NCBI GenBank assembly: GCA_966212355.1 | Contig: CBIHRB010000008.1 | Coordinates: 95,084 to 159,083, forward strand | Source of the DNA: an uncultured Mucilaginibacter sp. | Lineage (GTDB): Bacteria > Bacteroidota > Bacteroidia > Sphingobacteriales > Sphingobacteriaceae | DNA: 64,000 nucleotides | Reading direction: 5' to 3' | Shown here: positions 4,691 to 64,000 of the stretch, piece by piece | Layout of the letters: the number at the start of each line of letters is the position of its first letter | Numbering within the stretch: position 1 is the first letter of the stretch | The notes under the pieces: model-generated | What the model was told of the DNA's origin: nothing | Seen by the model: only the letters and a program-made list of their open reading frames with translations | Database searches by the model: none | Program-made: the position numbers and the translations under genes

Positions 4691-4801
4691 TGATTTGAAG
4701 ATACCTGTAGCTTCTTTAATTTGAAAATAAGACAATTTGAAGATTTGAAAATTGCCCGATGGTTACATTTTCAAATCCTCAAATCAATAAATTTTCAAAT
4801 T
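4691..4801. repeat. TTTGAAGA/TTTGAAAA short-tandem inverted repeat (family C), empty doublet
   Basis: ATTTGAAGATTTGAAAAT (4735-4752) vs ATTTTCAAATCCTCAAAT (4767-4784), 17/18; outer arms 4718-4728 and 4791-4801. Same family at 58711 and 59774. Confidence 0.8.
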
Positions 4802-6930: not shown

Positions 6931-7410
6931 TTACCTCTCGGCCTTTAAACGCAACGCCCTATCCAAAAAACTCTGCTGCTTTATTTTCTCTTCGGCTTCA
7001 ATAATAGCCTTCATCAGGTTGTTTTGGGTATCGGCAATTTCCGCGGCGGCCGCTTTCATAATTTCCCAAACGGGTTTCATGCGCACAATAAGTTCCTGGC
7101 CTTTTGTTGTTAACATGATAAGCCGTTTCCTTTCGTCGGCCTTGTCCTTTTTTGATCGGATCAATTTCTCTTTTTCCAATTCTTTTAACAGGCTGATGGT
7201 GGAAGGGTGGGTGTAGCCAATTTCAGCGGCGATTTCCACTACGCTTAAAAGCGGCTTAAAATGTAAAGTGTAAATAACAGGGAACCATTTGGGTTCAAAA
7301 TCAATATTACTGGCTTTGTATACAAGTACACCGTCTTTGCGCAGCTGCTCGGCCAGGCGCTGGAGCCTTGTTGAAATTGCTAAAATTCCCGATTCGTCAA
7401 TAACATTCAT
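6931..7410 (-). CDS. MarR family transcriptional regulator
   Basis: wHTH with THPSTISLLKELEK and DKADERKRLIMLT. Confidence 0.9.
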   Translation of the reverse strand: MNVIDESGILAISTRLQRLAEQLRKDGVLVYKASNIDFEPKWFPVIYTLHFKPLLSVVEIAAEIGYTHPSTISLLKELEKEKLIRSKKDKADERKRLIMLTTKGQELIVRMKPVWEIMKAAAAEIADTQNNLMKAIIEAEEKIKQQSFLDRALRLKAER

Positions 7411-8050: not shown

Positions 8051-8695
8051 ATGATTTTCATCCTCAATAAAACCGATACCATTGCCAACCAGTTTCTGGC
8101 CGAATTACGGGATGCCGTTATTCAGCAGGATAAGGCACGTTTCAGGCGAAACCAGGAAAAGTTAGGAGCCGTATTGGCTTATGAGCTGAGCAAATCATTA
8201 CATTACGAAACCAAAGAAATTCAAACCCCCTTAGGTACAGCCAGTGTTAATATGCCGGCCGATGAACCGGTGCTGGGTATTATATTGCGGGCAGGGCTCC
8301 CTTTTCACCAGGGTTTTATGCAGTTTTTCGACCGGTCACCTTCTGCATTTATCACAGCCTATCGCAAGGTGAAACGTAACGGCAGCTTTTTGATCCAGGT
8401 TGATCATATCTCAACCCCAAACCTTGATGACAAGATCTTTATTTTGTGTGATACGATGCTGGCCACCGGGCAAAGTATAGTATCTGTTTGTAAGGAATTG
8501 ATGGCGCAGTATAAAATAAAGGAACTACACATTGCCGCGGTAATTGCCAGCACCGAAGGGGTGGCGCATGTTAAAGCAAACCTGCCAAAGGCCAAGCTGT
8601 GGCTCTGCGCGGTGGATGATGAGATGACCAGCAAAGCCTATATCGTGCCTGGTTTGGGCGATGCGGGGGATTTGGCTTTTGGGGAAAAAGTGTAG
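8051..8695 (+). CDS. upp: Uracil phosphoribosyltransferase
   Basis: ILRAG, PRPP-binding DTMLATGQS and YIVPGLGDAGD motifs. Confidence 0.95.
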   Translation: MIFILNKTDTIANQFLAELRDAVIQQDKARFRRNQEKLGAVLAYELSKSLHYETKEIQTPLGTASVNMPADEPVLGIILRAGLPFHQGFMQFFDRSPSAFITAYRKVKRNGSFLIQVDHISTPNLDDKIFILCDTMLATGQSIVSVCKELMAQYKIKELHIAAVIASTEGVAHVKANLPKAKLWLCAVDDEMTSKAYIVPGLGDAGDLAFGEKV

Positions 8696-8698
8696 TTT

Positions 8699-8897
8699 GA
8701 TTTCGGATGTCGAATGTTCGATTTGGGATTTGTTTTGATTTCGAATTTCGGAAGTTCGATTTCGGATTTAGTAATTAAGATTTTCTAATTTTGAGTTTTC
8801 GATTTTTGAATCAAGGAATAAAACAATTTCGAAATCGAAAATCCGAAATCCGACATGAAATGATTAATTCCGAAATCGAACATCCGAAATCCGACAT
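8699..8897. repeat. Heptamer (GATTTCG / CGAAATC) tandem arrays in inverted arrangement (family D)
   Basis: Left arrays 8699-8731 and 8737-8769; right inverted arrays 8826-8856 and 8867-8897. Confidence 0.85.
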
Positions 8898-9588
8898 AAA
8901 GTATAAACACATCTTCTTTGATCTCGATCATACTATCTGGGATTTCGATAAAAATGCAGAGGAGGCCCTGCATGAGCTGTATGTTATTCACCAGCTTGGT
9001 GAAATAGGGCTGCAATCGGCCGAGCTGTTCATCGAAACGTATACCCGCAACAATCACCGCCTCTGGGCGCAGTATCATATCGGCGAGATCTCCAAAGATG
9101 AATTACGCGAGGCCCGTTTCAAATCAACCTTTACTGATCTTGGCCTTCACCCCGATCTGATGCCCGTTGATTTTGAGGATGCTTACGTAAAACTTTGCCC
9201 CACCAAAACCAACTTGTTTCCGCATGCGCACGAAACATTGCAATACCTGCAATCAAAATATACCCTGCACCTCATCTCGAACGGGTTTAAAGATTCAACG
9301 CGGATAAAAATAGCAGGAACCGATCTTGCCAAATATTTTCAGAACATTATTATCTCCGAAGATGTGGGTGTTAACAAGCCGGACAAAGCCATATTTCAAC
9401 ATGCACTTGACCTGGCCGGGGCATCAAAAGCCGAAAGCGTAATGATAGGAGACAGTATTGAAGCTGATATCCGCGGGGCGCTTAATTTTGGAATGGATGC
9501 GATTTATTTTAATCCTTTTAATGCGGAAAAACCTCAGGATGTAACAGTGCAGGTTGCTCATTTAAAAGAGTTAACTTTAATTTTATGA
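8860..9588 (+). CDS. yjjG: YjjG family noncanonical pyrimidine nucleotidase (HAD superfamily)
   Basis: DLDHT motif I, GVNKPD and MIGDSIEADI. ATG 8860 chosen; the TTG at 8791 reads through repeat sequence. Confidence 0.9.
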   Translation: MINSEIEHPKSDIKYKHIFFDLDHTIWDFDKNAEEALHELYVIHQLGEIGLQSAELFIETYTRNNHRLWAQYHIGEISKDELREARFKSTFTDLGLHPDLMPVDFEDAYVKLCPTKTNLFPHAHETLQYLQSKYTLHLISNGFKDSTRIKIAGTDLAKYFQNIIISEDVGVNKPDKAIFQHALDLAGASKAESVMIGDSIEADIRGALNFGMDAIYFNPFNAEKPQDVTVQVAHLKELTLIL

Positions 9589-11847: not shown

Positions 11848-12837
11848 ATGAAGATACTGTTTGGTATACAGGGAACAGGTAACGGGCATATAAGCCGGGC
11901 AAGGGAAATTGTGCCCCTGCTGCAACAATATGGCGAGGTTGACTTGCTGGTGAGCGGCACCGAAGCCGAAGTATCATTATCACAACCCCTGAAATATCGC
12001 TTTCATGGTGTAAGCTTTGTATTTGGTACCAATGGCGGCGTGGATAACTGGGCTACCTGGAAAATCATGAACCTGCGCCAGTTTCAACGGGATCTGCGGA
12101 GCCTTCCCCTGAAACAATATGACCTCATCATCAATGATTTTGAACCTGTAAGTGCCTGGGCTTGTAAATTGCGGGGTGTACCGTCGGTATCTTTAAGTCA
12201 CCAGTGTTCGTTTGTATCGCCAAAAACACCTCGCCCCGAAAAAAAAGACCCTTTTGCACAGTGGCTTTTAAAAAACTATTCGCCTACTACCTATCATGTA
12301 GGCTTCCATTTTGAGCGCTATGACACTTTTATCAATACGCCGGTAATCCGCAGTGAGATCAGGCAGATGGAAACCTCCGACCTGGGCCATTATACAGTTT
12401 ACCTGCCGGCTTATGATGACAAAACCCTGCTGAAATATTTAAGTGCCCAAAAAGATGTTAAATGGCAGGTATTTTCAAAACGACAAAAGCAGGCCTACAA
12501 ATCAGGAAACGTGGAGATCTTCCCCGTAAATAATGAAGCTTTTAACAAAAGCCTGGCAAGCTGTACTGGTTTGCTTACCGGTGGCGGTTTTGAAGGCCCG
12601 GCCGAAGCCCTTTTTTTACAGAAAAAGGTAATGATGATACCCATGAAAGGGCAATACGAGCAACAGTGTAACGCGCTTTCGGCCTCCAGGTTGGGGGTTC
12701 CGGTAGTGAGCGAAATAAACGGTAAGTTTAACGGGCACTTAAGTAAGTGGATCAATGACAGCAAGAAGATCGTGGTTGATTTTCCGGATGAAACCGCCGC
12801 TATTGTTGATAAACTGGTAAAGCAGTATACAAGGTAG
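11848..12837 (+). CDS. GT-B glycosyltransferase, MJ1255/VC2487-like family
   Basis: MKILFGIQGTGNGHISRA, INDFEP and GQYEQQCNA motifs. Confidence 0.8.
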   Translation: MKILFGIQGTGNGHISRAREIVPLLQQYGEVDLLVSGTEAEVSLSQPLKYRFHGVSFVFGTNGGVDNWATWKIMNLRQFQRDLRSLPLKQYDLIINDFEPVSAWACKLRGVPSVSLSHQCSFVSPKTPRPEKKDPFAQWLLKNYSPTTYHVGFHFERYDTFINTPVIRSEIRQMETSDLGHYTVYLPAYDDKTLLKYLSAQKDVKWQVFSKRQKQAYKSGNVEIFPVNNEAFNKSLASCTGLLTGGGFEGPAEALFLQKKVMMIPMKGQYEQQCNALSASRLGVPVVSEINGKFNGHLSKWINDSKKIVVDFPDETAAIVDKLVKQYTR

Positions 12838-27983: not shown

Positions 27984-28730
27984 ATGACCGACGATAGTTT
28001 TGCCATTAGGTTACCCCAGTTTGAAGGCCCGTTTGACCTGCTGCTGTTTTTCATTGAGCGCGATGAGCTGGATATCCACGATATCCCGATAGCAAAAATT
28101 GCCGATGATTTTTTGAATTTCCTGCACCAGATGTCGAGCCTCAATATGGAAATTGCCAGCGAATTTATTTTCGTGGCGGCAACGCTTATGCGCATCAAGG
28201 CCAAGATGCTGTTGCCGCGTTATGGCACCGAAGAAGCAGTCGATGACCCGGACACCAAAGAAAACCTGATCAGGAAACTCATCGAGTATAAAAAGTTCAA
28301 AGAGGTGTGTGAAGAGATAAGGCCGATGGAAGATGAGCGCTTTAAACAGGAAAAGCGCGGCAATATCAAACATGACCTCGAACAGGTTGAGAAAGTGGCC
28401 GTCCCCGGCGAAGAGTTATCCGAATTAACCCTTTACCGTCTTATGGTTGTTTATGAGCGGATGATCCGCAATTTCACCAGGCGCAGCGAGGAGGTGAAAC
28501 ACACGGTAGTACAGTATCCCTATACCATCGAAAAACAAAAAAAGGCAGTTGCCGATCTGCTCAAGATCAATAAAATGCTCGATTTTAAAGCAATCGCCAA
28601 AGAATCTGAAAACAAAGTTCATTTTGTATATAACTTTTTGGCAGTGCTTGAAATGTTGCAACAGGAACTGATAGATATCCAGATTGGATTGGGTTATAAT
28701 AACTTTTGGATTTCGCCAAAAGAGATATGA
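27984..28730 (+). CDS. scpA: Segregation and condensation protein A
   Basis: FEGPFDLLLFFI..DI.DIPI, ASEFI..AATLMRIKAKMLLP and FLAVLEM motifs. Confidence 0.93.
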   Translation: MTDDSFAIRLPQFEGPFDLLLFFIERDELDIHDIPIAKIADDFLNFLHQMSSLNMEIASEFIFVAATLMRIKAKMLLPRYGTEEAVDDPDTKENLIRKLIEYKKFKEVCEEIRPMEDERFKQEKRGNIKHDLEQVEKVAVPGEELSELTLYRLMVVYERMIRNFTRRSEEVKHTVVQYPYTIEKQKKAVADLLKINKMLDFKAIAKESENKVHFVYNFLAVLEMLQQELIDIQIGLGYNNFWISPKEI

Positions 28731-29096
28731 GACATTAGATTTGAGATATGAGACGGAATAAGCCAAGTGTTTTAAAAAAGAGGAGGCCATCGGTTAGTTT
28801 ATCGGAGGCTGATTTTTGGACTGATGTTCCAAAAGGAATTAAGCAGGCTATTCAAAAAGCCAAAGAACAACTTGATCGGGGTGAGGGCATTGCACATGAT
28901 AAAGTGATGGAAAAAATAAAATCCAGATTTCTCAACAGTTGAAGTTGTTTGAGATCCAAAGAATAATTATACGTTTAGATCTGATGATTTATTCGCCGTA
29001 AACACCTGGGCGGCAAATAATATTGTGTTTATTTTAAGCTACGTAAAATCTAACATTACTCTTGTCTCAAATCTCACATCTCACATCTCAAATCTA
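28722..29096. mobile_element. Unit bounded by inverted heptamer arrays (GAGAT[A/G/T]T)n (family E), carrying an orphan antitoxin
   Basis: Left arm 28722-28754 and right arm 29064-29096, both 33 bp with 7-bp period, in inverted orientation. Confidence 0.55.
28748..28942 (+). CDS. Orphan or truncated antitoxin-like protein (RelE/ParE partner type)
   Basis: DFWTDVP..IKQAIQKAKEQLDRGEGIAHDKVM resembles addiction-module antitoxin C-termini; no intact toxin follows. Confidence 0.55.
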   Translation: MRRNKPSVLKKRRPSVSLSEADFWTDVPKGIKQAIQKAKEQLDRGEGIAHDKVMEKIKSRFLNS

Positions 29097-33551: not shown

Positions 33552-33644
33552 CCCCACCCAACCCTCCCCGGAAGGGAGGGCTTTGAAAAGAAAGATTCAG
33601 GTCAAAAAGAAAGTCTCCCCTTCCGGGGGAGATTTAGAGGGGGC
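33551..33644. repeat. GC-rich palindromic repeat (family A), intergenic copy
   Basis: CCCCACCCAACCCTCCCCGGAAGGGAGGGCT...AAGTCTCCCCTTCCGGGGGAGATTTAGAGGGGGC; near-identical at 50829-50911 and 63601-63671. Confidence 0.9.
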
Positions 33645-47430: not shown

Positions 47431-47993
47431 GTCGGGAAGTCCGCAGTCCGCAAGTCCGAAAGTTGAGATCCAGCTTTCGGACTTGTCTTTTATAATATTG
47501 TAAATTCTTCAATCGCCGCCCGGTTAATGGCTACAGTGGTACAGCGACCGCAAATAAAGTACTTTTAGCGGATTGTTAGTGTAATCCCTGTTTTTATTAT
47601 ATGTCTTATTGTCAAGGCTTTATATTGACAAATTGCGAAAAGTGTTAACCCTGTTAACCCCCATCGCCGCCGCTCGCATCATGGCGAGTGGCAACTATCA
47701 AGCGGCCTCTGGCCGCCGGGGCAAAAGCAGCTTAGCCGTTTTAACTTGCGCTCGTTTTTAACTTGCGCTCGTTTGCAACGAGTGCTTAACTTGGGTTAGC
47801 GTTTATAACGCGACTGGCGATGCAATCGCCAAACCATATTAAGCACTCGTTGCAAACGAGCGCAAGAGATGATAGTATAAGAATCTTTCGGACTTCCGGA
47901 CTTTCCGACATAAAAAAACATTTGTATTTTTATAGATATAAAGTCTTTCCGTGAAAATCTTTCGGACTTATGCGGACTTTCCGACTTCCGGAC
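47431..47993. repeat. Nested cluster of at least three REP-like families
   Basis: AAGTCCGAAAG-type arms at 47431-47484, 47885-47909 and 47959-47993; hairpins at 47669-47716; perfect 28-bp inverted repeat 47762-47789 / 47839-47866. Confidence 0.85.
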
Positions 47994-50801: not shown

Positions 50802-50912
50802 AGCCCCCTCTAAATCTCCCCCGGTAAGCCCCACCCAAACCCTCCCCGGAAGGGAGGGCTTTTAAGAAATCTCCATAAAGTCTCCCCTACCGGGGGAGAT
50901 TTAGAGGGGGCT
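50802..50912. repeat. GC-rich palindromic repeat (family A) with an extra inverted half
   Basis: Perfect 23-bp inverted repeat 50802-50824 / 50890-50912; full element starts at 50829 after TAAG. Confidence 0.9.
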
Positions 50913-51696: not shown

Positions 51697-54600
51697 TTGA
51701 CCAAAGTATTTACTTATAAGACACTTATAAGTGTGTTGTTCATTGTGGTGTTCGGGGGGCTGGGTAATGTGTATGCACAACAAAAGCCTTCGCCTGCGGC
51801 TAAAAATGATACAACCAAATCAAATGCACCAATAAACCTGACCGCGCCACGAAGCCAGCGGATGAGGGAAGGTATTTTCAATACCGACCCGGCAGGCCTG
51901 GTACGTACCATTGAATATGATCCGGCCACAAACCGTTATATTTTATACGAAAGGGTAGGTAATTTGCTTTACCGCCCGCCGCAGTATCTTACGTTTGAGC
52001 AATATTTAAAACTTAAAGAACGATCGGTCCAACGGGGCTATTTTCAGCAACTGGCAGATAATTATGCCTATGATTCGCAGCAGCCGGGGTTTATACCGCC
52101 TATAAAGGTGAGGAGCCGTACGTTTGAGCAGATCTTTGGCAGCTCGGTGATTGATATCCGTCCGCAAGGATCAGCAGAAATGATCATGGCCGGGCAGATA
52201 AATAAAAACCAGAACCCGCTTTTTAACACCCGCCAGCGCAGCCAGTTTAACTTTAATTTTGATCAGCGCATCCAACTCAACGTAACCGGTAACATAGGTG
52301 ATAAGTTAAAGATCACCACCAATTACAACACCGACGCGCAGTTCCAGTTTGAAAACCAGATCAAACTGGATTATACCGGATCGCCCGACGAGATCATCCA
52401 GAAAATTGAAGCCGGTACGGTTAGTATGCCGCTTAATACCACACTGATCACCGGTAGTCAGGCGCTTTTTGGCGTTAAAACCAAGCTGAAATTTGGGCGG
52501 CTGGATGTTACCAGTATCTTTTCGCAGCAACGCTCGCAGTCAAAAACCATCACCATTACCAATGGCTCGCAACAAGGTGAGTTTAGGTTGACCCCTGCCG
52601 ATTATGAAGCCAATAAGCACTTCTTCCTGTCGCAATATTTCAGGAATAATTATAACAGGGCGCTGGCCAATATCCCGATCATCAGCTCCAACGTAAACAT
52701 TACTAAAATTGAGGTTTGGACAACCAACCGTACCAACGTAACTACCGATTCGCGCGATATATTGGCTTTCATCGACCTTGGTGAAAATAACCCATACAAT
52801 AAAACAAGGATAGTAGGCGGCGGCAGTGCCCTGCCCGCGGGTTTTAAAGGGCCTGGTTTTGCCCAGCAATCAAACAACCTTTTATCTGTTTTGCCGCAAA
52901 ATGCAAGGCTCACCAACTCCAATGATGTTGCCAGCTTTTTCCAGGGATCGGGCAATACGGATAACTATTCAAAACTAACTTATGCCCGCAAGCTTACCGA
53001 TAAGGAGTATACCCTGCACCCGCAATTAGGTTATATCTCCTTAAATTATCCCTTAAATAATGACGAGGTGCTGGCGGTTGCTTACCAGTATACCGTTAAC
53101 GGTGTACAATACCAGGTGGGTGAATTTAGCAGCGATGTTGCGGTTAACCCAAATACGCCTAATGTGCTTTTTGTGAAATTGCTGAAAGGCGAGTTATTGA
53201 AAACCAACCTGCCCACCTGGGATTTGATGATGAAAAACATTTACTCCCTCGGTGCTTTTCAGATAGCCCCTACCAATTTTAAGCTAACTGTAACCCGCCT
53301 CGATGATAAAACGGGGATCGAAAAAACGGTAATGGAAGAGGGGCAAAACCTAAAAGGCAAACTTTGGCTCCAGGTAGCAGGACTTGATAACCTCAACCAG
53401 CAAAGCGATAAAAAGCCGGATGGCTACTTTGATTTTTTAGAAGGAATCACCATCGATTCGCAAAACGGGCGGATTTCGTTCCCGGTGGTGGAGCCTTTTG
53501 GTTCGGACCTGGCATCCAAATTTACCCCTGGCGAGACCGACCTGGTTAAACGATATGTTTATCAACCATTGTATGACTCAACCAAAACTATCGCGCAGCA
53601 ATATTTCCCGGCATTAAACAGGTATGTAATTAAGGGAACTTATACCTCAACAGGTGGTTCGGAGTACCAGTTGAACGCGGTCAACATTCCGCAGGGATCT
53701 GTAAATGTAACCGCGGGTACGGTAAAATTACAGGAAGGGAACGATTACACGGTTGATTACAATGCCGGGCGGATCAGGATCCTGAACCAGGCACTGTTAT
53801 CTTCCGGCCAGCCTATTACCGTAAAGCTGGAGAATAATGAATTGTTCGGCGTACAGCAAAAGTCATTGTACGGCACCAGGCTTGATTATCATGCCAGCGA
53901 TAAACTTCAGTTAGGTGCTACTTTGATGCACCTAACTGAGCAACCCATTACCCAAAATGAAATTGCCGGTGAAGAATCCATCTCCAATACCATCTGGGGT
54001 TTTGATGCCAATTACAGTTCAAATTCCAGGTTTTTAACCAGGCTGGTTGATAAGATCCCCGGCATCCATACCAAAGTGCCATCGTCCATTAATTTTTATG
54101 GCGAGTTTGCCAAACTGATGCCGGGCAGCCCCGGTGCATTGAATTTTGCAGGCTCCAAACACGGCACATCTTATCTTGACGATTTTGAGAACAGTCAATC
54201 GGTAATAGATATTAAAGGAGCTAACAGCTGGCAAATTTCAGGAACGCCGCAGCTATTCGGCGAATCGGCTTTGTTTGATAACCTGAGCTATGGCTACAAC
54301 CGTGCCCGGCTGGCATTTTATAATATCGACCCTATATTTTATACCAACACAGGTTCCATCCCCATATCAAGAAGCGAGCTTTCCAACCATTATGTAAGGC
54401 AGGTAATTGAGCAGGAAGTTTTCCCCTACAAGCAGTCGGCTACCGGGCAGCCGATTAGCCTGGCTACGCTCAACATGGCTTTTTATCCAACTATCCGTGG
54501 ACCGTACAACTATGCTACCACAGGTATTAATCCCGATGGTACCTTGCAAAACCCTAAAACACGCTGGGGCGGTATGTTCAGGAAGCTGGAAACAAATGAT

Positions 54601-57600
54601 TTTGAATCGTTGAACGTATCCTACATCGAGTTTTGGATGCTTGATCCGTTCATATACAAACCAAACTCGGCTGGTGGTGATTTGTACTTTAACTTAGGTT
54701 CGATATCGGAAGATATTTTAAAGGACGGGCGTAAAAGCCTGGAAAATGGTTTGCCTGTTGATGGCGACCTGACCAAGGTGGATGAAACCAGCTGGGGGCG
54801 GGTGTCTAAACTACAGCCGGTTATTAATGCTTTTGATAACAACCCCGATGCCCGTAAACTGCAGGATGTTGGTTTGGACGGCATGAACGACCAGGATGAG
54901 CAAACCAAATTTGCCCCGGTTGTTCAGCAGATAAAAGGGCAACTGAACGCGCAGGCCGCGACTGCCATCGCTTCCGACCCATCGTCGGATGATTATCAGT
55001 ATTACCAGGGCCCGGCGCTCGACCAGGCCCGCGCCGGCATCCTCGACCGTTATAGCAAATATAACGGTACGGATGGTAACTCGAAAACGGCGCAGCAATC
55101 GCAGGCCGAACTTGGTTTGCAAAACTCGGCTTCAACATCCCTGCCCGATGGTGAGGATATTAACCGGGACAACAACATGAGCCAGGAAGATTCATACTTT
55201 CAGTATAAAGTATCCATGCGCCCGGCAGATATGGTGGTAGGGCAAAATTACATCAGCGATAAAGTTACCGCACAGGTAAAACTGCCCAACGGCACAACAC
55301 AGGCAGTTAACTGGTACCAGTTTCGCATCCCGATTACCGATTATCAATCAAAAGTGGGCAATATCCAGGATTTTAAGGCCATCCGTTTTATGAGGATGTT
55401 CATGACCAACTTTGCCGATACCGCTATACTTCGTTTTGCTACGCTCGAACTGGTACGCGGCGAGTGGCGTGCTTTCAATACCGAAAAAAATCCGTTGAAT
55501 GTTATTGCCGATCCTGCTATCCAAAACCCACCGATAGATAATTCGACCATCGACGTGCAGGCTGTAAATATTGAAGAAAACGGTAACCGCACGCCAATAC
55601 CTTATGTTGTGCCACCGGGTATTAACCGTCAGCGTAATTACAATAACCTGCAAACCAATACCAAGCTCAACGAGCAATCACTGTCCCTTAATATAAAAAG
55701 CCTGCGCGATGGATATTCAAGGGCCGCCTTCCGTACTTTTTATAATGACCTGCGCAAATACAAACGCATGCAAATGTTTATCCATGCCGAGGGTGATTAT
55801 TTGAAGAATAATGACCTGAACGCGTTTATCCGCCTCGGAGTTGATTACCAGGATAACTATTATGAGTACGAATTGCCTTTAAAAATAACCCAGCCGGGTA
55901 CCAGCGACGCAGGAGCAATATGGCCGGATGTTAATGAAATGGACCTGGAGCTTGATTTGCTGATCCGCGCAAAGCTTGCACGTAATCACTCTAACGTGGC
56001 CTACAACCAGCTTTTTAAATACACCGAGGGTGATAAGGTAGTTTATATCAAGGGCCAGCCCGATTTAAGCAAGCTGCGTACCATTATGCTTGGCGTACGC
56101 AATCCTTATAAAGGCACAAATGTTTTGCCCGATGATGGGCTGGATAAATCAGGAACTGTTTGGTTTGATGAGCTCCGCCTTACCGATTTTGATCAGCGCG
56201 GGGGATGGGCCGCTACCGCGAGGATTGATGCCAAGCTTGCCGACTTTGCCGATATTACCGTATCGGGCAGTAAAACGACTATTGGTTTCGGTACCCTTGA
56301 TTCAAGGCTGAACGACCGGAGCCAGAGTGATGATCAAACCTATGACGTATCGGCCAATGTTGAGTTGGGCAATTTTTTTCCGGATAAAAGCGGCATCCAT
56401 ATCCCGGCATACATCAATTTGTCATCACAAAGGAGCATGCCGCAATATGATCCCGGAGCGCCGGATGTTGAGCTGAAGGCCTCGCTGGCGGCGGCAACCA
56501 GCACCAAAGAGCGCGACTCTATCAGGAACGCGGCTATTGACATTACCACCCGCAAAAGCATCAACTTTACCAACGTACATAAGGCGCGTACAAATCAAAA
56601 CGCTCTCAATCATATTTGGGACATTGAAAATTTTAATGCCACTTATGCTTATACCGAATACAATCACCATGATTTTGTGACGCAGAATGATGTGGAGAAA
56701 ACCTATAATCTCACACTCGCTTATAACTATACCAATCAGCCCAAATACTACAGCCCATTTGCCAGGATCATCAAAAGCAATATGCTGGCCCTGTTCCGGG
56801 ACCTTAACTTTAGTCTGCTGCCGTCGCGATTGAATTTCAGCATCAATTTCAACCGCTTTTATTCGGAGAATACCCTGCGCGATAATGATCCTAATAACTA
56901 TATTCCTATCCCGACAACTACATTCAACAAGTATTTCAACATTACCCGTGTATATGGCATAGGCTGGAACCTGTCAAAATCATTACAAATGGATATTGAC
57001 GCTACCAATCTTTCGGTTGTAGATGAACCCGCCGGTCGGATCAACGGTTTAAAGCGCGATACCCTTTGGGATAACCTGAAAAAGCTGGGCCGTACAACCA
57101 ACTATAACCACACTATCAATTTTAATTATACTGTACCTATTAACAAAATTCCGGGATTGGATTGGATATCGGCAGTAGCGCGTTACAGTACACACTTTAA
57201 CTGGCAAACACAGCCGCTGTTCGCTATCAATAGTACCGCTTATGATGTTGGTAACAGTATTCAAAACTCAAGGGCAATCCAGCTTAACCCAACCCTGAAT
57301 ATGGTGTCGCTGTATAATAAGTTCCCTTTTATCCGCAAGGCCAACAATCCCAATAAAAAGAGCAATATCCTGATCGGCCTGCTAACCAGCATTAAAAACC
57401 TAAGCGCAACCTATACCCGTACACAGGGAACGTTTTTACCGGGATACTTACCGCAGTCGGGCTTTTTTGGTGCAGATGGCAATGCCCCCGGGTTAGGCTT
57501 TTTACTGGGCAGCCAGGCAGATATCCGGGCCAGGGCTGTGGCTAACGGCTGGATTACTACCGATACCCTGCAAAATCAGTTGTATACCACATCGCTAAAC

Positions 57601-58707
57601 GAGGATATGCATTTCAGGGGTATTATTGAACCGTTTAAAGATCTGCGGATTGAGCTTAGCGCCTTTAAAACCCAGGACCATAACTACCAGGCCAATTTCA
57701 AATACCTGGCCTCAAGCAATAGTATCGAAACATTAAGCCCGGTTACATCGGGTAATTACAGTGTATCATTCCTCACTATTGGCACCGCCTTTGAATCGGC
57801 GAAGGGAATTAACAATGTTTCATCTACTTTTCAGAAATTTTTGGATGCCCGCGCCGTAATATCGCAAAGATTAGGACGTACTAATCCAAATTCGGCCGGG
57901 GTTGCTGATGGTTATGCCGATGGTTACGGGCCAAATTCGCAAAATGTACTGGTGCCGGCGTTTCTGGCAGCATATGCAGGTAAAAATGCTTCGGGCAGTA
58001 ACCTGTCGCAATTCCCCAAAATTCCTATTCCCAACTGGCAGGTAACCTACAATGGCTTAGGTAAGATCTCCTGGTTCCAGGATATTTTTGATTCGTTTGA
58101 CCTGAGCCATGGTTACCGTTCATCATATAATGTAAGCGGCTTTACCTCGCTGCTGCAATATCGCGAGGCTAATGGCGCCGCCACTTCGCGCGATTTAAAT
58201 AATGATTTCCTGCCGTTGTACCAGTTTTCGCAGGTCACCATTTTTGAGCAGTTTGTGCCTTTGCTGGGCGCAAGCGTACGCTTCAAAAACAGCATGACCG
58301 CCAATGCCGAATATCGCCAAAGCCGTTCGTTAAGCTTAAGTATGCTTAACAGCCAGTTGGCACAGCAAAATGAAAAGATCATTGTTTTTGGTTTTGGTTA
58401 CCACACCAAAGATTTCCATTTTCCGTTTGGCTGGTTTGAGGGCATTCAGCATAAGGACGTGAACTTTAAGCTCGATTTTTCATTGCGCGATAATAAAACG
58501 CTCATTTACCGGGCTGATGTTGAATCGGCTGAGATATCATCGGGTGCGCAAAATATTACCGTAAGGCCATCTGTTGATTATGTGATCAACCAGCGTTTTA
58601 ACCTGAATTTGTTTTATGATTCAAACCTTACCAAGCCCTATACGTCGCAAACGTTTAATACATCATTTACCAATTTTGGGATTAATTTGAAGTTGTTGCT
58701 GCAATAA
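51697..58707 (+). CDS. sprA: Type IX secretion system outer-membrane translocon SprA/Sov
   Basis: 2336 aa; IFG...IDIRPQG, SEDILKDGRK, EDINRDN and VWFDELRL motifs; ruvA-sprA synteny. Confidence 0.95.
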   Translation: MTKVFTYKTLISVLFIVVFGGLGNVYAQQKPSPAAKNDTTKSNAPINLTAPRSQRMREGIFNTDPAGLVRTIEYDPATNRYILYERVGNLLYRPPQYLTFEQYLKLKERSVQRGYFQQLADNYAYDSQQPGFIPPIKVRSRTFEQIFGSSVIDIRPQGSAEMIMAGQINKNQNPLFNTRQRSQFNFNFDQRIQLNVTGNIGDKLKITTNYNTDAQFQFENQIKLDYTGSPDEIIQKIEAGTVSMPLNTTLITGSQALFGVKTKLKFGRLDVTSIFSQQRSQSKTITITNGSQQGEFRLTPADYEANKHFFLSQYFRNNYNRALANIPIISSNVNITKIEVWTTNRTNVTTDSRDILAFIDLGENNPYNKTRIVGGGSALPAGFKGPGFAQQSNNLLSVLPQNARLTNSNDVASFFQGSGNTDNYSKLTYARKLTDKEYTLHPQLGYISLNYPLNNDEVLAVAYQYTVNGVQYQVGEFSSDVAVNPNTPNVLFVKLLKGELLKTNLPTWDLMMKNIYSLGAFQIAPTNFKLTVTRLDDKTGIEKTVMEEGQNLKGKLWLQVAGLDNLNQQSDKKPDGYFDFLEGITIDSQNGRISFPVVEPFGSDLASKFTPGETDLVKRYVYQPLYDSTKTIAQQYFPALNRYVIKGTYTSTGGSEYQLNAVNIPQGSVNVTAGTVKLQEGNDYTVDYNAGRIRILNQALLSSGQPITVKLENNELFGVQQKSLYGTRLDYHASDKLQLGATLMHLTEQPITQNEIAGEESISNTIWGFDANYSSNSRFLTRLVDKIPGIHTKVPSSINFYGEFAKLMPGSPGALNFAGSKHGTSYLDDFENSQSVIDIKGANSWQISGTPQLFGESALFDNLSYGYNRARLAFYNIDPIFYTNTGSIPISRSELSNHYVRQVIEQEVFPYKQSATGQPISLATLNMAFYPTIRGPYNYATTGINPDGTLQNPKTRWGGMFRKLETNDFESLNVSYIEFWMLDPFIYKPNSAGGDLYFNLGSISEDILKDGRKSLENGLPVDGDLTKVDETSWGRVSKLQPVINAFDNNPDARKLQDVGLDGMNDQDEQTKFAPVVQQIKGQLNAQAATAIASDPSSDDYQYYQGPALDQARAGILDRYSKYNGTDGNSKTAQQSQAELGLQNSASTSLPDGEDINRDNNMSQEDSYFQYKVSMRPADMVVGQNYISDKVTAQVKLPNGTTQAVNWYQFRIPITDYQSKVGNIQDFKAIRFMRMFMTNFADTAILRFATLELVRGEWRAFNTEKNPLNVIADPAIQNPPIDNSTIDVQAVNIEENGNRTPIPYVVPPGINRQRNYNNLQTNTKLNEQSLSLNIKSLRDGYSRAAFRTFYNDLRKYKRMQMFIHAEGDYLKNNDLNAFIRLGVDYQDNYYEYELPLKITQPGTSDAGAIWPDVNEMDLELDLLIRAKLARNHSNVAYNQLFKYTEGDKVVYIKGQPDLSKLRTIMLGVRNPYKGTNVLPDDGLDKSGTVWFDELRLTDFDQRGGWAATARIDAKLADFADITVSGSKTTIGFGTLDSRLNDRSQSDDQTYDVSANVELGNFFPDKSGIHIPAYINLSSQRSMPQYDPGAPDVELKASLAAATSTKERDSIRNAAIDITTRKSINFTNVHKARTNQNALNHIWDIENFNATYAYTEYNHHDFVTQNDVEKTYNLTLAYNYTNQPKYYSPFARIIKSNMLALFRDLNFSLLPSRLNFSINFNRFYSENTLRDNDPNNYIPIPTTTFNKYFNITRVYGIGWNLSKSLQMDIDATNLSVVDEPAGRINGLKRDTLWDNLKKLGRTTNYNHTINFNYTVPINKIPGLDWISAVARYSTHFNWQTQPLFAINSTAYDVGNSIQNSRAIQLNPTLNMVSLYNKFPFIRKANNPNKKSNILIGLLTSIKNLSATYTRTQGTFLPGYLPQSGFFGADGNAPGLGFLLGSQADIRARAVANGWITTDTLQNQLYTTSLNEDMHFRGIIEPFKDLRIELSAFKTQDHNYQANFKYLASSNSIETLSPVTSGNYSVSFLTIGTAFESAKGINNVSSTFQKFLDARAVISQRLGRTNPNSAGVADGYADGYGPNSQNVLVPAFLAAYAGKNASGSNLSQFPKIPIPNWQVTYNGLGKISWFQDIFDSFDLSHGYRSSYNVSGFTSLLQYREANGAATSRDLNNDFLPLYQFSQVTIFEQFVPLLGASVRFKNSMTANAEYRQSRSLSLSMLNSQLAQQNEKIIVFGFGYHTKDFHFPFGWFEGIQHKDVNFKLDFSLRDNKTLIYRADVESAEISSGAQNITVRPSVDYVINQRFNLNLFYDSNLTKPYTSQTFNTSFTNFGINLKLLLQ

Positions 58708-59134
58708 GGCTGATTTGAAGATGGGTTAATTTGAAGATTTAAAAATGAAATAATAATCTGAATTTCGGGTGGGTAACGTTCTATCAGGGTCTGTAGCAAA
58801 TTCAAATTAACCTGCAAAATTGTTTGTTGGTTAATCAGCAAGGCGTTGTTTTACCCCTCTGGGGCAAGGGACATATCTATTATTTCGAGGGCTACAAACC
58901 TTTTGCACCTCTGGTGCATCATTTTCAAATCCTCCTTCCCCTCAGGGGCTCTCGGGAGAGGACCCTGAGGGTGATAATTATCTTACGGTTAGCCTTAGTC
59001 GAATACTATATGAACGAAGCTTTACTCTATTCAGGAAAAATTTGAGGATAATTCATGATCCTCAAAAAGAGCTGAAGGGACGCGAACGGCGCCCGGGATT
59101 TTAAATAGCTTCAAGGAATTAGTATATTTGTTAT

Positions 59135-59341
59135 ATGGATGCATTAATTGTTTACCCTGAGAATAAGGAGCAGATGGCAGCTTTAAAAGCAGTGATGAAA
59201 GCCATGAAAATATCTTTTGAACAAAAAAGCGAAGTTTACCCGGATTACGTGGTTAAGGGAGTTAAAGAATCACTAAAACAAGCTGATGAGGGAAAATTAA
59301 CTCCATACACCGGATTTAAGAATGTTCTAAACAGAAGATGA
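59135..59341 (+). CDS. DUF2683-like putative antitoxin
   Basis: ALIVYPENKEQ.AALKAVMKAMKISFE; ATGA overlap with the toxin; TATATTTG -7 box at 59123-59130. Confidence 0.75.
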   Translation: MDALIVYPENKEQMAALKAVMKAMKISFEQKSEVYPDYVVKGVKESLKQADEGKLTPYTGFKNVLNRR

Positions 59342-59628
59342 GTTTAGAAATCCTATCTACGCAAAATGCGGACGAAACATTTATAGCAGTTTACGACTTT
59401 ATTGAAATCCGTTTCGGAAAAAAAGTTGCTGATAAATTTTTAGAAAAGACTGAAAACATCGTAGCTCTAATAGCAGAGTATCCACTTATGTATAAAGCTA
59501 CATCTATAGATGTCAATGTAAGAATTGCAATTATCAGTAAACACACTTCTCTATTTTACCGGGTTACAGAAACATCTGTTCATCTCTTATACTTTTGGGA
59601 CAATCGTCGGGATCAGTTGTTTTTATAA
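59338..59628 (+). CDS. RelE/ParE family toxin
   Basis: A.ETF..VYDFI..RFG.KVADKF, LIAEYPLMY and SLFYRV....HLLYFWDNRR pattern. Confidence 0.85.
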   Translation: MSLEILSTQNADETFIAVYDFIEIRFGKKVADKFLEKTENIVALIAEYPLMYKATSIDVNVRIAIISKHTSLFYRVTETSVHLLYFWDNRRDQLFL

Positions 59629-59807
59629 CAAGTTCCCCAATCAATACCCCGCCGTTGTGGGTGTTCTCATCATAGGTGTTCGAAGATAAAGTTATCTCTT
59701 TTTTAAATGAACATTTTCGCCCAAATTTTATCTTCCGAACACCAACAGCGGCGGAAGAAAACTCGAGGAGCTCCATTTTCAAATCTTCAAATTAAACAAT
59801 CTTCAAA

Positions 59808-61610
59808 TCAAAACTTCCCCTGGTCCATCAACTTTTTCCGCTCCGCTTTTCTTTTCTGGCGCTCTGCTTTATTCTTTAAACGTTCTTCTTTGTTTTTGAG
59901 ATGCTCGTCAATGCGGTCTTTAGTGGCTTTTTGGCTTTCTTCATCAAGGCCGACACATGGTTTTATACCGGTAAGCAGGGTTTTCCAGATAGTTTTAAAA
60001 AATGGCGAATCTTTAGGCCGTTTATAGATCACTAATGATGAAGTGAGCTTCCCCTTATCATCAGGATTACTACGCCTGATCACGAAGAGATTGGCATATA
60101 TCGACATGATTGATTTCCTTTTGAAACGATCATTAACCGTATCGGCTTTTAGTAGCACCACCTTTAAATCGTTATATAAAAAATCAACCTTACCTTTAAA
60201 TACCTTGCTGTTGGCCTGGATATCAAAGCTGAATTTTTTTACGCTGCCCGATGTCATTTTTACCATGGCTAAAGGCATGGTAGCCGGATTTAGCCTTCCA
60301 AATTCCATTGGTCCTAATGTGCCCTTATAACTGAAGGCGGCATCTGCATCGCTTAAATTAAATTTCAATTGCACATCGAGCCGGCCGCGGTTCATAAAAT
60401 ACGTTGTCAGATCAACAAGGGTAATGTTGTTTTTGGCTATGGCCGATGGATTGTTGGTAATGTTATAAATATACCCGCTGGTATTGTTAAATGTAACGGT
60501 GCCTGTTTTTTGAGATTTTTTATTGAACTCGTTATAGATCACATCAACGTGCCGGATTTTCATGGTGTCGATCCTTAAATCAAGGTTTAATTTCCTGATC
60601 ATCATATTGGGGAACGTTTTAACCTTATCTGTTACAGGATCTGGTTTCTTACCCGGGTTGGTGAAAGCTGTTATCTTGCCGTTTGCCATGGTTAGGCTTG
60701 AAGCAGAAACTGTGCGGTATTTGTGATAATTTAAATAGTCAAAATTGTTTAGCTGAACAGAATCGGCCAGTAAGCCCAGCCGGTCCTTCTTGCTTTTATC
60801 AAAAAAAACATCCGATTTAGTTGGCTGCATAACAAGCCCTTCGATATTTAGCCGTGATGTAAGGGTTGAGAGTTTAAGATGCCTGATCTTATAAGTATGC
60901 AAACCGCTCGGTGTTTCTCCGGTGTAATTGTTCAACTCGGTGATAATATCTTTGCAATAAAGCAGGCGCGATTTATCATATTGTGTAGCCGAATCAATGA
61001 GCAGGTCGTTTGCACTTAAGTTTAGCTCTTTAAGTTTGGAAATGGCCACCTTATTTCCCGAGTAATCTTCATAGTTCAGGTTAACGTCATTAAGCAGGAT
61101 GCTGCCGATATGGATCGATTTCAGGCTTTTGGAGATCCGCTGCCAGGCGGTACGGCGATCTTTAACAACAGTATCTTTGGTATGGTTTAACTGGTAGCTT
61201 ACATTCAGGCGCGGCTCATTCAGGATGATTTGGCCAATGTTCAACTTTTTTTGAAAATAGAGGCTAAATGGATGCACGTGGTTAAGCACCAGCCGTTTTA
61301 CCTTAAGCTCAACCAGGGTATTGGGGGCCAGGCGTAAACGCTTTTTTTGATTGTAAACTGTTGTGTCGGGCTTAAGGGTTATATTGTAAATAATAATTTT
61401 GCCCTGCAGGATATGCAGCTCGGCGTCCGAAAAATCGGCTTTGTAAAGGCTGTCGCTGCTGCTTAATACCACATCCTTTACTTTGGCGGCCAAAATGGGC
61501 GACCAATACCTGTTTACTACTACAGCCAGCAGCAATATCACTATAACCGGTATCAGCACAAATTTAAAAGTTTTTTTTTGCCACTGGTGCTTTAAAAAAT
61601 TGAGTGCCAT
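59808..61610 (-). CDS. AsmA/DUF748-like membrane-anchored beta-rich protein
   Basis: N-terminal TM anchor, beta-rich repeats, charged C-terminal tail; family is inference. Confidence 0.5.
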   Translation of the reverse strand: MALNFLKHQWQKKTFKFVLIPVIVILLLAVVVNRYWSPILAAKVKDVVLSSSDSLYKADFSDAELHILQGKIIIYNITLKPDTTVYNQKKRLRLAPNTLVELKVKRLVLNHVHPFSLYFQKKLNIGQIILNEPRLNVSYQLNHTKDTVVKDRRTAWQRISKSLKSIHIGSILLNDVNLNYEDYSGNKVAISKLKELNLSANDLLIDSATQYDKSRLLYCKDIITELNNYTGETPSGLHTYKIRHLKLSTLTSRLNIEGLVMQPTKSDVFFDKSKKDRLGLLADSVQLNNFDYLNYHKYRTVSASSLTMANGKITAFTNPGKKPDPVTDKVKTFPNMMIRKLNLDLRIDTMKIRHVDVIYNEFNKKSQKTGTVTFNNTSGYIYNITNNPSAIAKNNITLVDLTTYFMNRGRLDVQLKFNLSDADAAFSYKGTLGPMEFGRLNPATMPLAMVKMTSGSVKKFSFDIQANSKVFKGKVDFLYNDLKVVLLKADTVNDRFKRKSIMSIYANLFVIRRSNPDDKGKLTSSLVIYKRPKDSPFFKTIWKTLLTGIKPCVGLDEESQKATKDRIDEHLKNKEERLKNKAERQKRKAERKKLMDQGKF

Positions 61611-62856: not shown

Positions 62857-64000
62857 ATGATGGATTTGCTTATTCCGGATAAAACACATGATGAGAGCAG
62901 GCAGGGTGAGGCGTTAATGTTAAAAGCCGAAACAGCTAAAAATAATGGCCGCAAGCTTTATATTGAAAGCTACGGCTGTGCCATGAATTTTTCTGACAGT
63001 GAGATAGTTGCATCGATATTGGCCGAAAGTGGTTTTGAAACTACTGCCGACTATAGCGTAGCCGATGTTATTTTCATCAATACCTGTTCTATCCGCGAAA
63101 ATGCCGAACAGCGCGTACGCAACCGTTTAAAAGAGTTTACCGTTGCCAAGGTAAAAAATCCAGGCCTGGTAGTAGGCGTATTGGGCTGTATGGCCGAACG
63201 CCTCAAATCAAAATTCCTGGAAGAAGAAAAATTAGTTGACGTTGTGGTTGGCCCGGACGCGTACCGCGATTTGCCGAACCTCATTAACCAGGTAGATGAT
63301 GGTCAAAAGGCAGTTAACGTGCTGCTCTCCCGTGAGGAAACTTATGCCGATATCAGCCCGGTGCGTTTAAACAGCAATGGTATCAATGCATTTGTATCCA
63401 TTATGCGCGGGTGCGACAACATGTGCTCGTTTTGCGTGGTACCCTTTACCCGTGGCCGCGAACGCAGCCGCGATCCTTTATCGATAGTTGCCGAATGCCG
63501 CGACCTGTTTGACAAAGGTTATCGTGAGGTTACTTTGTTAGGGCAGAATGTAGATTCATATAAGTGGCGTCCCACCCAAACTCTCCCCGGAAGGGATAAG
63601 CCCCACCCAAACCCTCCCCAGGAGGGAGGGCTTTTAGAAGTCTCCCCTGCCGGGGGAGATTTAGAGGGGGCTGGTGAGGCTGTTAACTTCGCTAACCTGT
63701 TAGAAATGGTTGCACTGATCGATCCTGATCTGCGGGTTAGGTTTTCAACCTCACATCCAAAGGATATCACCGATGAGGTGCTGCATGCCATCAATAAATA
63801 CGATAACATCTGTAATTATATCCACCTGCCGGTACAATCGGGCAACAGCCGTATTCTTGACCTGATGAACCGCACTTATGACCGTGAATGGTATATCAAC
63901 AGGATCGACGCTATCCGTCGTATCATTCCGGATTGTGCAATTTCAACCGATGTGATCACCGGTTTTTGCAGCGAAACAGATGAGGAGCACAAGGATACTG
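62857..64000 (+). CDS. miaB: tRNA-2-methylthio-N6-dimethylallyladenosine synthase MiaB, 3' end outside window (absent from ORF track)
   Basis: Hand translation: [63 protein letters not shown]; no stop codon seen. Confidence 0.96.
63571..63672 (+). repeat. Family A repeat inserted in frame within miaB
   Basis: 102 bp; encodes [34 protein letters not shown]. Confidence 0.9.

Follow-up and report, generated by a model that had tools for sequence, protein, structure and literature searches.

In an uncultured Mucilaginibacter sp., the gene sprA and a conserved gene of 600 aa, which are convergent, are separated by a gap that holds a toxin-antitoxin (TA) gene pair enclosed by two inverted repeats of 37 nt, here called arms. 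The gap lies in a 64,000-nt stretch of contig CBIHRB010000008.1, referred to as the window, and a first-pass annotation had read the 1.1 kb from arm to arm as one unit, whose arms would serve either as a mobilisable bracket or as a landing pad for the TA pair. We consider it probable, with some reserve, that this "unit" is a composite, made up of a resident TA pair, of arms which belong to the ends of the flanking genes, and of palindromes piled up in a hypervariable convergent gap. Arms and TA pair are separable at this very locus: two relatives keep the TA pair without arms (loci L093 and L094), and another has arms without the TA pair (L006). In addition, the TA genes have diverged in step with the neighbouring gene, and the tract recently exchanged between close strains leaves the arms out.

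The sprA gap among relatives

The window falls within the Mucilaginibacter rubeus/gossypii clade, and the closest sprA loci are those of strain R-33 (L001), M. rubeus and M. gossypii (L003). Eighty Mucilaginibacter loci were retrieved with the C-terminal 299 residues of SprA as query; in the names used below L039 is M. dorajii, L083 is CP071878.2, and L101 is a contig from a public sequencing run. The SprA C-terminus is 95-100% identical across L001-L009, and most of the 80 loci preserve the synteny of sprA and the 600-aa gene. The gap between the two genes ranges from 43 to ~2900 nt across the genus.

Comparison of strains downstream of sprA, suggested in the first-pass annotation, did reveal that gap contents differ between strains. 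Arms and TA pair occur together in the window, L003, L081 and L083, and also in L007 and L107, where pieces derived from a dispersed repeat, palindrome P, flank the TA pair on both sides. L008 has arms and an antitoxin pseudogene, L005 the right arm alone and an orphan antitoxin, L004 an orphan antitoxin and no arms, and M. dorajii (L039) the right arm alone, the left one being missing. L006 combines arms, the left one partial, with other palindromes, nested one within another. The gap is 160 nt long in L001 and L009, and hosts a different, perfect palindrome (CGTCATTGCGAGG...) and neither the TA pair nor proper arms; L002, which similarly lacks both, carries two CGTCATTGCGAGG-type palindromes and a P palindrome. 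As to the left arm, it is present in L003, L007, L008 and L107, partial in L006, and absent from L001, L004, L005, L009, L093 and L094. The arm-less TA pairs sit tightly in the gap. In L093, whose toxin is 82% identical, 63 and 9 nt separate the TA pair from the border genes, and the 3' tail of the cassette directly abuts the stop of the convergent gene. In L094, whose toxin is 68% identical, the antitoxin starts at most 18 nt past the sprA stop, and the toxin stop is 13 nt away from the stop of the convergent gene. On a tree of the flanking proteins with the states mapped, arm-less TA pairs are found both in a sister lineage (L094) and inside the clade (L093). Toxin homologues at 51-61% identity (L090, L096-98, L099) reside at unrelated loci with no such repeats.

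Insertions concentrate in the sprA gap throughout the genus, irrespective of arms. In other species it hosts G-family palindromes, a Y1_Tnp gene resembling RAYTs (the tyrosine transposases associated with REPs, repetitive extragenic palindromic sequences), a YcxB-like gene or a DUF2807 gene; as the cargo of arm-less species is equally varied, it is the gap, and not the arms, that makes the hotspot. Almost all matches to G-family palindromes in ~1 Mb of loci (22/24) sit in the sprA gap. In L001 the sprA stop is immediately followed by a long, near-perfect G-type palindrome, CGTCATTGCGAGG...CCTCGCAATGACG (6934-7025; z -8.1), which is found at equivalent spots in L005, L009, L030, L042, L064 and L074 as well. 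The CGTCATTGCGAGG type starts with CGTC, and in this recalls the CGTC-tagged REPs (PMC3733652). The IS200-like, RAYT-like Y1_Tnp gene occupies the gap in L044 (6930-7600) and L062 (6915-7590), and is truncated in L060.

Sequence divergence tells how long the TA pair has been in place. The DNA identity of the TA genes and that of the 600-aa gene, each measured between the window and a relative, were 85.4 vs 83.6% for L007, 85.0 vs 84.1% for L107, 81.6 vs 85.4% for L093, and 73.2 vs 75.2% for L094. TA divergence thus tracks that of the neighbour gene (73-85% vs 75-85%), indicating a long, mostly vertical residence in the gap. A different picture emerges among close strains bearing the TA pair, when the cassette (59115-59643, 529 nt) is set against flanks made up of the 3'-terminal 1.5 kb of sprA together with the 600-aa gene. 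Here the cassette differs at 1-2 positions, the flanks by 3.7-6% (Fisher p 1e-7 to 1e-10). As an example, 2 differences were counted in the 529 nt of the cassette (99.6% identical) vs 187 in 3300 nt of flanks (94%; p = 3.5e-10). The low-diversity tract coincides with the cassette only, and spacers, palindrome P and arms are as diverged as the flanks. Since the tract excludes the arms, what was recently exchanged between close lineages is the cassette, and the arm-bounded unit did not move. The possibility that arms acted as recombination handles in the exchange was rejected, because the tract stops at the cassette ends and each arm carries 2-3 differences. The 3' end of the 600-aa gene (59831-60160) is ~13% diverged from M. 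gossypii L003 and closer to the TA-less strain R-33 (L001), a mosaic indicative of recombination in the vicinity of the gap.

Arms, cassette and other components of the gap

The components of the gap, its border genes and a second site of the arm family in the window are as follows.

51697 to 58707, + strand: sprA, type IX secretion translocon, open reading frame (ORF) of 2336 aa, bounding the variable gap on the left
58711 to 58747, + strand: left arm, 8-nt periodic array TTTGAAGA / TGGGTTAA / TTTGAAGA / TTTAAAAA, forward relative to sprA
58748 to 58912, no strand: spacer, strain-specific, absent from M. gossypii L003
58913 to 58937, no strand: reverse half-arm (CATCATTTTCAAATCCTCC), 82% to 59767-59788, 83% complementary to 58706-58723
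58938 to 58971, no strand: GC-rich hairpin CCCCTCAGGGGCTCTCGGGAGAGGACCCTGAGGG, from the RNA fold
59123 to 59130, + strand: TAtaTTTG box, 4 nt ahead of the antitoxin start codon (ATG)
59135 to 59341, + strand: antitoxin, DUF2683 family, 68 aa (Pfam PF10884, E 3e-16)
59338 to 59628, + strand: toxin, ParE/RelE superfamily, 96 aa (Pfam PF05016, ParE_toxin, E 1e-6)
59629 to 59646, + strand: 3' tail of the TA cassette (..TTCCCCAATCAA), conserved; the low-diversity tract ends here
59649 to 59754, no strand: palindrome P (CCGCCGTTGTGGGTGTTC ... GAACACCAACAGCGGCGG), RNA fold -41 kcal/mol, z -5.8, member of a dispersed repeat family
59774 to 59810, - strand: right arm, 8-nt periodic array (period 8 and 16), forward relative to the convergent 600-aa gene
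59808 to 61610, - strand: conserved 600-aa gene, ORF, convergent with sprA, right border of the variable gap
4691 to 4801, - strand: tight doublet of the TTTGAARA family, which immediately follows the uvrB stop and precedes the promoter of a DUF4834 gene

The inverted ends described in the first-pass annotation were borne out by the repeat finder and by direct reading: the arms are complementary at 34/37 positions (92%), and 1026 nt separate them. The left arm begins 3 nt past the sprA stop, as had been noted. The right arm overlaps the stop codon of the 600-aa gene, and had been thought to supply it. Yet the arm-less L001, L009 and L093 have this stop as well (TCA on the + strand, ...TCAAAACTTCCCC), which is therefore native to the gene. 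Both arms are tandem arrays of the 8-nt unit TTTGAARA. Each of them is forward relative to its own gene, and the two genes are convergent, so that an inverted repeat arises automatically. The core motif ATTTGAAGATTT, searched with at most 1 mismatch, occurs 6 times in the window vs 0.92 expected, and all six occurrences are confined to 4735-4800 and 58729-59808. Only one other pair of inverted sequences more than 100 nt apart and at least 80% matching over at least 30 nt is found in the 64 kb (28722/29059). Folded alone, neither arm forms a hairpin (z -0.27 for the left, +0.54 for the right one), and arms are thus not REPs. They start with TGATTTGAAG or TAATTTGAA, and carry no GTAG or CGTC tag. 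In agreement with the first-pass annotation, no transposase resides between the arms in the window, and no target-site duplication accompanies them, the outer flanks (...TAAGGC before the left arm, AAACTT after the right one) featuring no direct repeat.

The assignment of the enclosed genes to a TA pair was confirmed by the Pfam matches. The toxin gene overlaps the antitoxin stop by 4 nt, and its product weakly matches ParE structures 5cw7 and 5czf; 44 toxin homologues are annotated as RelE/ParE. All TA homologues examined have the TAtaTTTG box in front of them (window, L003-L008, L090, L093, L094, L096, L099), and the box matches TAnnTTTG, the established -7 promoter consensus of Bacteroidota. 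From the position of the box, the TA mRNA is predicted to be leaderless or near-leaderless. Antitoxin and toxin remain paired in L090, L093, L094, L096 and L099, and the antitoxin is decayed or orphaned in L004, L005 and L008. The exact toxin is found in 10 contigs (9 places shown), always at the sprA gap. Plasmid and phage collections returned no match to either the arm-bounded unit or the TA genes, and PADLOC and NCBIfam none for the TA proteins. In the literature searched DUF2683 is mentioned once, in passing, with no experimental characterisation. On sequence grounds, the pair is an ordinary chromosomal type II TA cassette of ~530 nt.

The remaining pieces of the gap are heterogeneous. Two internal palindromes had been proposed. 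The one at 59649-59754, palindrome P, holds; the one at 58854-58971 (z -1.8) dissolves into a few local hairpins and the reverse half-arm at 58913-58937, with which the left arm may originally have been paired. A small terminator-like hairpin (58904-58918) is followed by a T-rich tail. In L083 the equivalent of the GC-rich hairpin at 58938-58971, situated between left arm and TA pair, is interrupted by the gene for an IS1595-family transposase (1708-2598). Further copies of palindrome P were detected at position 578 of the window and in L002, L006, L007, L016, L017 and L070. Insertion of the TA pair into palindrome P in L007 was contemplated, and is weakened by the P-derived copies on both sides of the pair in L107. 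As to the border genes, PF14349 (SprA_N) was matched on orthologous sprA products, and the product of the 600-aa gene, called AsmA-like in the first-pass annotation, has no Pfam or NCBIfam match. A search of the whole window against Rfam at gathering thresholds yielded no match.

Outside the gap, the arm family forms tight doublets. The empty doublet at 4691-4801 reported by the first-pass annotation was confirmed, and forms a long hairpin on either strand (z -5.6 on one, -7.1 on the other). It is conserved at the uvrB site in L100 and L102-104, another array type being present in L101. Tight TTTGAARA doublets also follow the stop of a MiaB-like gene, at an orthologous site, in L019, L047, L051 and L059; the L019 doublet (12104-12170) and that of the window have fold z-scores of -5.6 to -7.1. 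At all co-directional loci examined the purine-rich arm is 5' in the sense of the upstream gene. Searching the literature for the arm repeat sequence retrieved unrelated Helicobacter oligonucleotides only. As read from these sites, the arms are a genus-wide class of gene-end repeats, usually found as tight inverted doublets at or over stop codons. The notion that doublets of the family occur with or without cargo holds insofar as both an empty doublet and a wide filled pair exist; it fails in taking arms and TA pair as one unit. By analogy with REPs and bacterial interspersed mosaic elements (BIMEs), the arms probably function in the formation of transcript 3' ends, or in protection or processing between genes. 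The novelty is modest: the TTTGAARA arms would constitute a new family of extragenic repeats, the TA module itself being ordinary.

Alternative histories of the bracketed cassette

According to the composite reading, a DUF2683-ParE/RelE cassette with its own promoter box would have been resident in the gap since before the split of the L094 lineage, and would have co-diverged with the neighbour gene. Several lineages would have lost it or retained it in decayed form, and close strains would have swapped it recently, homologous recombination being the presumed route. Two gene-end repeats, each forward to its own gene, would have come to face each other across the convergent gap, and small palindromic repeats (palindrome P, GC-rich hairpins, the half-arm), as well as IS1595 in one strain, would have accumulated there. 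The order that we favour is TA pair first, arms later. Some observations weigh against this scenario. L001 and L009 show what seem to be vestigial arms, of one unit each, around a different palindrome, as expected of an ancestral doublet with changing contents. The concentric layout of L007 and L107, with parts of P around the TA pair and inside the arms, could reflect insertion into hairpin loops. Periodic inverted arrays bracket other small genes as well (23S_rRNA_IVP, Uma2, a 64-aa ORF; see below), and brackets may hence exceed coincidence. A scan for the classical terminator consensus, in which a U tract follows a GC-rich stem at a transcript 3' end, found no site at the arms, doublets of which are long A/U-rich stems at stop codons. 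Lastly, the survey covered ~1.1 Mb of Mucilaginibacter DNA, mostly from one syntenic region. The first two of these points would rather suit a history in which an ancestral tight TTTGAARA doublet served as a landing pad and was entered by the TA pair and the palindromes at its hairpin or cruciform loop, such loops being favoured by incoming foreign DNA, for example through breaks at extruded hairpins or by hairpin-targeting single-strand transposition, the arms being split and later lost in L093 and L094. This history, which we hold to be rather unlikely, draws on the existence of tight empty doublets of the family and of other split arrays with cargo, on the variety of what lies between arms in different strains (TA pair, palindrome P, G palindrome, IS1595), on the nested palindromes of L006, and on an AATCA(A) direct repeat seen at both ends of the right-hand insertion when the window is compared with L093. 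Yet it requires that both arms were lost cleanly, and independently, in L093 and L094, whose TA pairs lie within 9-63 nt of the genes. Moreover, the equally varied gap cargo of arm-less species makes arms unnecessary for landing, and at the MiaB-downstream and uvrB loci empty and filled alleles use different units, which is not what loop insertion predicts.

Alternatively, the arms could pair in read-through transcripts coming from sprA or from the convergent gene, and form a long double-stranded RNA stem insulating host genes and cassette from each other, arms being selected for once the cargo has arrived. Such a stem would be comparable to those, processed by RNase III, on either side of 23S rRNA intervening sequences. 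Both the minimum-free-energy and the centroid RNA fold of 58700-59820 retain the arm-arm stem, as does the fold of a bracketed 23S_rRNA_IVP unit (L037, z -5.1) that recurs at an orthologous site in 21 species, and the constant 5' position of the purine-rich arm at co-directional loci is in keeping with this role. Lone arms in L005 and L039 are not, and co-transcriptional pairing across 1 kb is on general grounds kinetically unfavourable. At the IVP locus, the complementarity of arms was 14.9 within loci vs 13.3 between loci, a difference that is not significant (p = 0.16), and covariation is thus not demonstrated. We regard an insulating stem as improbable. A non-autonomous unit of arms and cargo, similar to miniature inverted-repeat transposable elements (MITEs) or to REPINs (REP doublets), and mobilised in trans by a nuclease, for instance a RAYT, is one of the two proposals of the first-pass annotation, and in our opinion a very improbable one. 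It is contradicted by L093 and L094, since relatives with the TA pair and no arms were named in that annotation as a refutation. The 34/37 terminal inverted repeats, the multiple copies of the arm family and the RAYT-like Y1_Tnp genes in the same gap of L044 and L062 would speak for it. Against it stand the lack of a second copy, the exact toxin being restricted to one locus in its 10 contigs, and of a target-site duplication; the occurrence at the same locus of TA pairs without arms and arms without TA pair, with TA-less alleles replacing the whole gap; the co-divergence of the TA pair with the neighbour gene; and an exchanged tract that excludes the arms. The REP/RAYT precedent invoked for it does not apply either, as single arms are neither hairpins nor tagged by GTAG or CGTC. 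No RAYT gene flanked by arms was found in the surveyed Mucilaginibacter loci. The RAYT-like genes of L044 and L062 are flanked by inverted REP hairpins of their own (CTTGCGCTCGTCTGTGACGAGTGC; CTTGCGCTCGTCTGTGACGAGTGCTTAAC), different from the arms. Their REP family, distinct from the arms, also forms a doublet at 47745-47866 of the window, and no RAYT-like gene was found within the 64 kb.

Other bracketed genes and relation to known systems

Periodic inverted arrays of other units, identified with TRF (Tandem Repeats Finder) together with a search for an inverted partner, are common. One case concerns a 23S_rRNA_IVP gene (PF05635, E 1.5e-32, ~120 aa), bracketed in 21 species by inverted arrays of 7-8 nt, xxCAAGA / TCTTGxx. 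The unit fills, with little room to spare, the interval from a MiaB-like gene's stop to the next gene's start (L037, 10884-11335), and has orthologues in L002, where the gene is a pseudogene, and in L004, L005, L009, L011, L012, L014, L016, L017, L029, L032, L039, L044, L050, L052, L061, L068, L069, L071 and L078. In L019, L047, L051 and L059 its place is taken by the tight TTTGAARA doublet. The literature on the 23S intervening-sequence protein and on the four-helix-bundle protein contains nothing on bracketing repeats.

Additional arrays were observed in the window and in L101. Split inverted TKTGAGA arrays of 7 nt (28722-28753 / 29059-29095), 306 nt apart, overlap the scpA stop and end before glyA. 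They enclose a 64-aa ORF (28748-28942), found only at the same gap in the close relatives L105 and L106. By eye the ORF looked antitoxin-like; Pfam, NCBIfam and PDB gave no match to it, and we do not regard it as belonging to a TA system. No record of the exact protein was retrieved for ScpA, GlyA or the 64-aa ORF. A very long, tight inverted pair of 7-8-nt TKTCGRA arrays (GATTTCGRA... / ...TCCGAAATC) spans 8697-8900, directly after a gene ending at 8695, and AAGTCCGM arrays lie at 47437 and 47885. In the uvrB-DUF4834 gap of L101 (597-1431), arrays of the TGTGCAGA/TCTGCACA type replace TTTGAARA, and an extra gene of the Uma2 family (PF05685) sits between two reverse arrays. A palindromic repeat of the GGGGGAGATTTAGAGGGG type is read in frame inside a MiaB-like radical-SAM gene which runs off the window end (63545-63680), and looks like an intragenic palindromic insertion; related palindromes occur at 33552-33642 and 50802-50912. 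The repeat-bearing loop of the MiaB-like protein is hypervariable, 13-63 aa long in more than 50 Mucilaginibacter loci, and repeat-derived peptides recur in it.

Array units change with the locus (TTTGAARA, TGTGCAGA, TKTGAGA, TKTCGRA, xxCAAGA, AAGTCCGM), and the accessory genes inside arrays include the 23S_rRNA_IVP gene of 21 species, the TA pair of the window, the Uma2 gene and the 64-aa ORF. The recurring geometry of arm, cargo and arm may be functional, or may result from entry into hairpin loops; both readings are weakened by the different units of empty and filled alleles at one locus and by the non-significant covariation. As a tentative, and rather doubtful, generalisation, Mucilaginibacter, and perhaps Sphingobacteriaceae at large, might carry undescribed gene-end elements consisting of inverted 7-8-nt arrays with a locus-specific unit. 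Such elements would start at stop codons, and would exist either as tight hairpins or as functional brackets around small accessory genes, acting as a gene-excising or insulating RNA stem or as a preferred entry site. If so, the TA pair would be one instance of a general way of housing small selfish genes between host genes.

The closest known relatives in form are the REP, BIME and REPIN elements of Proteobacteria and their RAYT transposases (Bertels & Rainey 2011, PMC3116915; Di Nocera et al. 2013, PMC3733652). One end of a REP unit bears a GTAG or CGTC tag, conserved and unpaired, and the partners of a REP dimer can be split by inserted DNA (PMC3733652). Arms are similarly short, multi-copy and extragenic, and lie just after stop codons. 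Inverted doublets with a short spacer fold as long hairpins (4691-4801, L019), a likeness in form only, and for doublets only. Roles in the formation and stabilisation of transcript 3' ends have been proposed for REPs and BIMEs, and are suggested here, by analogy, for arms. In contrast, a REP unit is an imperfect palindrome of 20-40 nt which folds, whereas a single arm is a run of tandem 8-mers which does not, lacks either tag, and was not found to flank a RAYT gene in the surveyed loci. The cassette resembles type II TA systems of the ParDE/RelBE kind in having two small overlapping genes, the antitoxin first, with a PF05016 toxin, as well as in its patchy presence, decay in place to orphan antitoxins and exchange between close strains; it differs in the antitoxin, a DUF2683 protein. 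With the intervening sequences of 23S rRNA (PF05635) the TA region has in common a small gene inside inverted repeats whose pairing would give a long stem, and the PF05635 units of 21 Mucilaginibacter species share this geometry. These units are located between protein-coding genes, not in rRNA, and RNase III processing applies to them by analogy only. They also differ from the TA arms in their repeat (xxCAAGA vs TTTGAARA), and the TA pair exists without arms too. The 37-nt terminal inverted repeats around a non-transposase cargo recall MITEs and composite transposons. Unlike these, the segment has no target-site duplication, occupies a single locus and has no cognate transposase, and arms occur alone and as tight doublets with a variable number of units.

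The example guards against misannotation. An inverted repeat around a TA pair resembles a transposon, and would here be a by-product of gene-end repeats facing each other. The alleles described are real ones, and illustrate how a chromosomal TA pair persists, through a long stay in one gap, repeated decay to an orphan antitoxin or loss, and near-identical replacement. Should the bracketing arrays prove functional, they would represent a Bacteroidota counterpart of REP/BIME biology and of the stems of rRNA intervening sequences.

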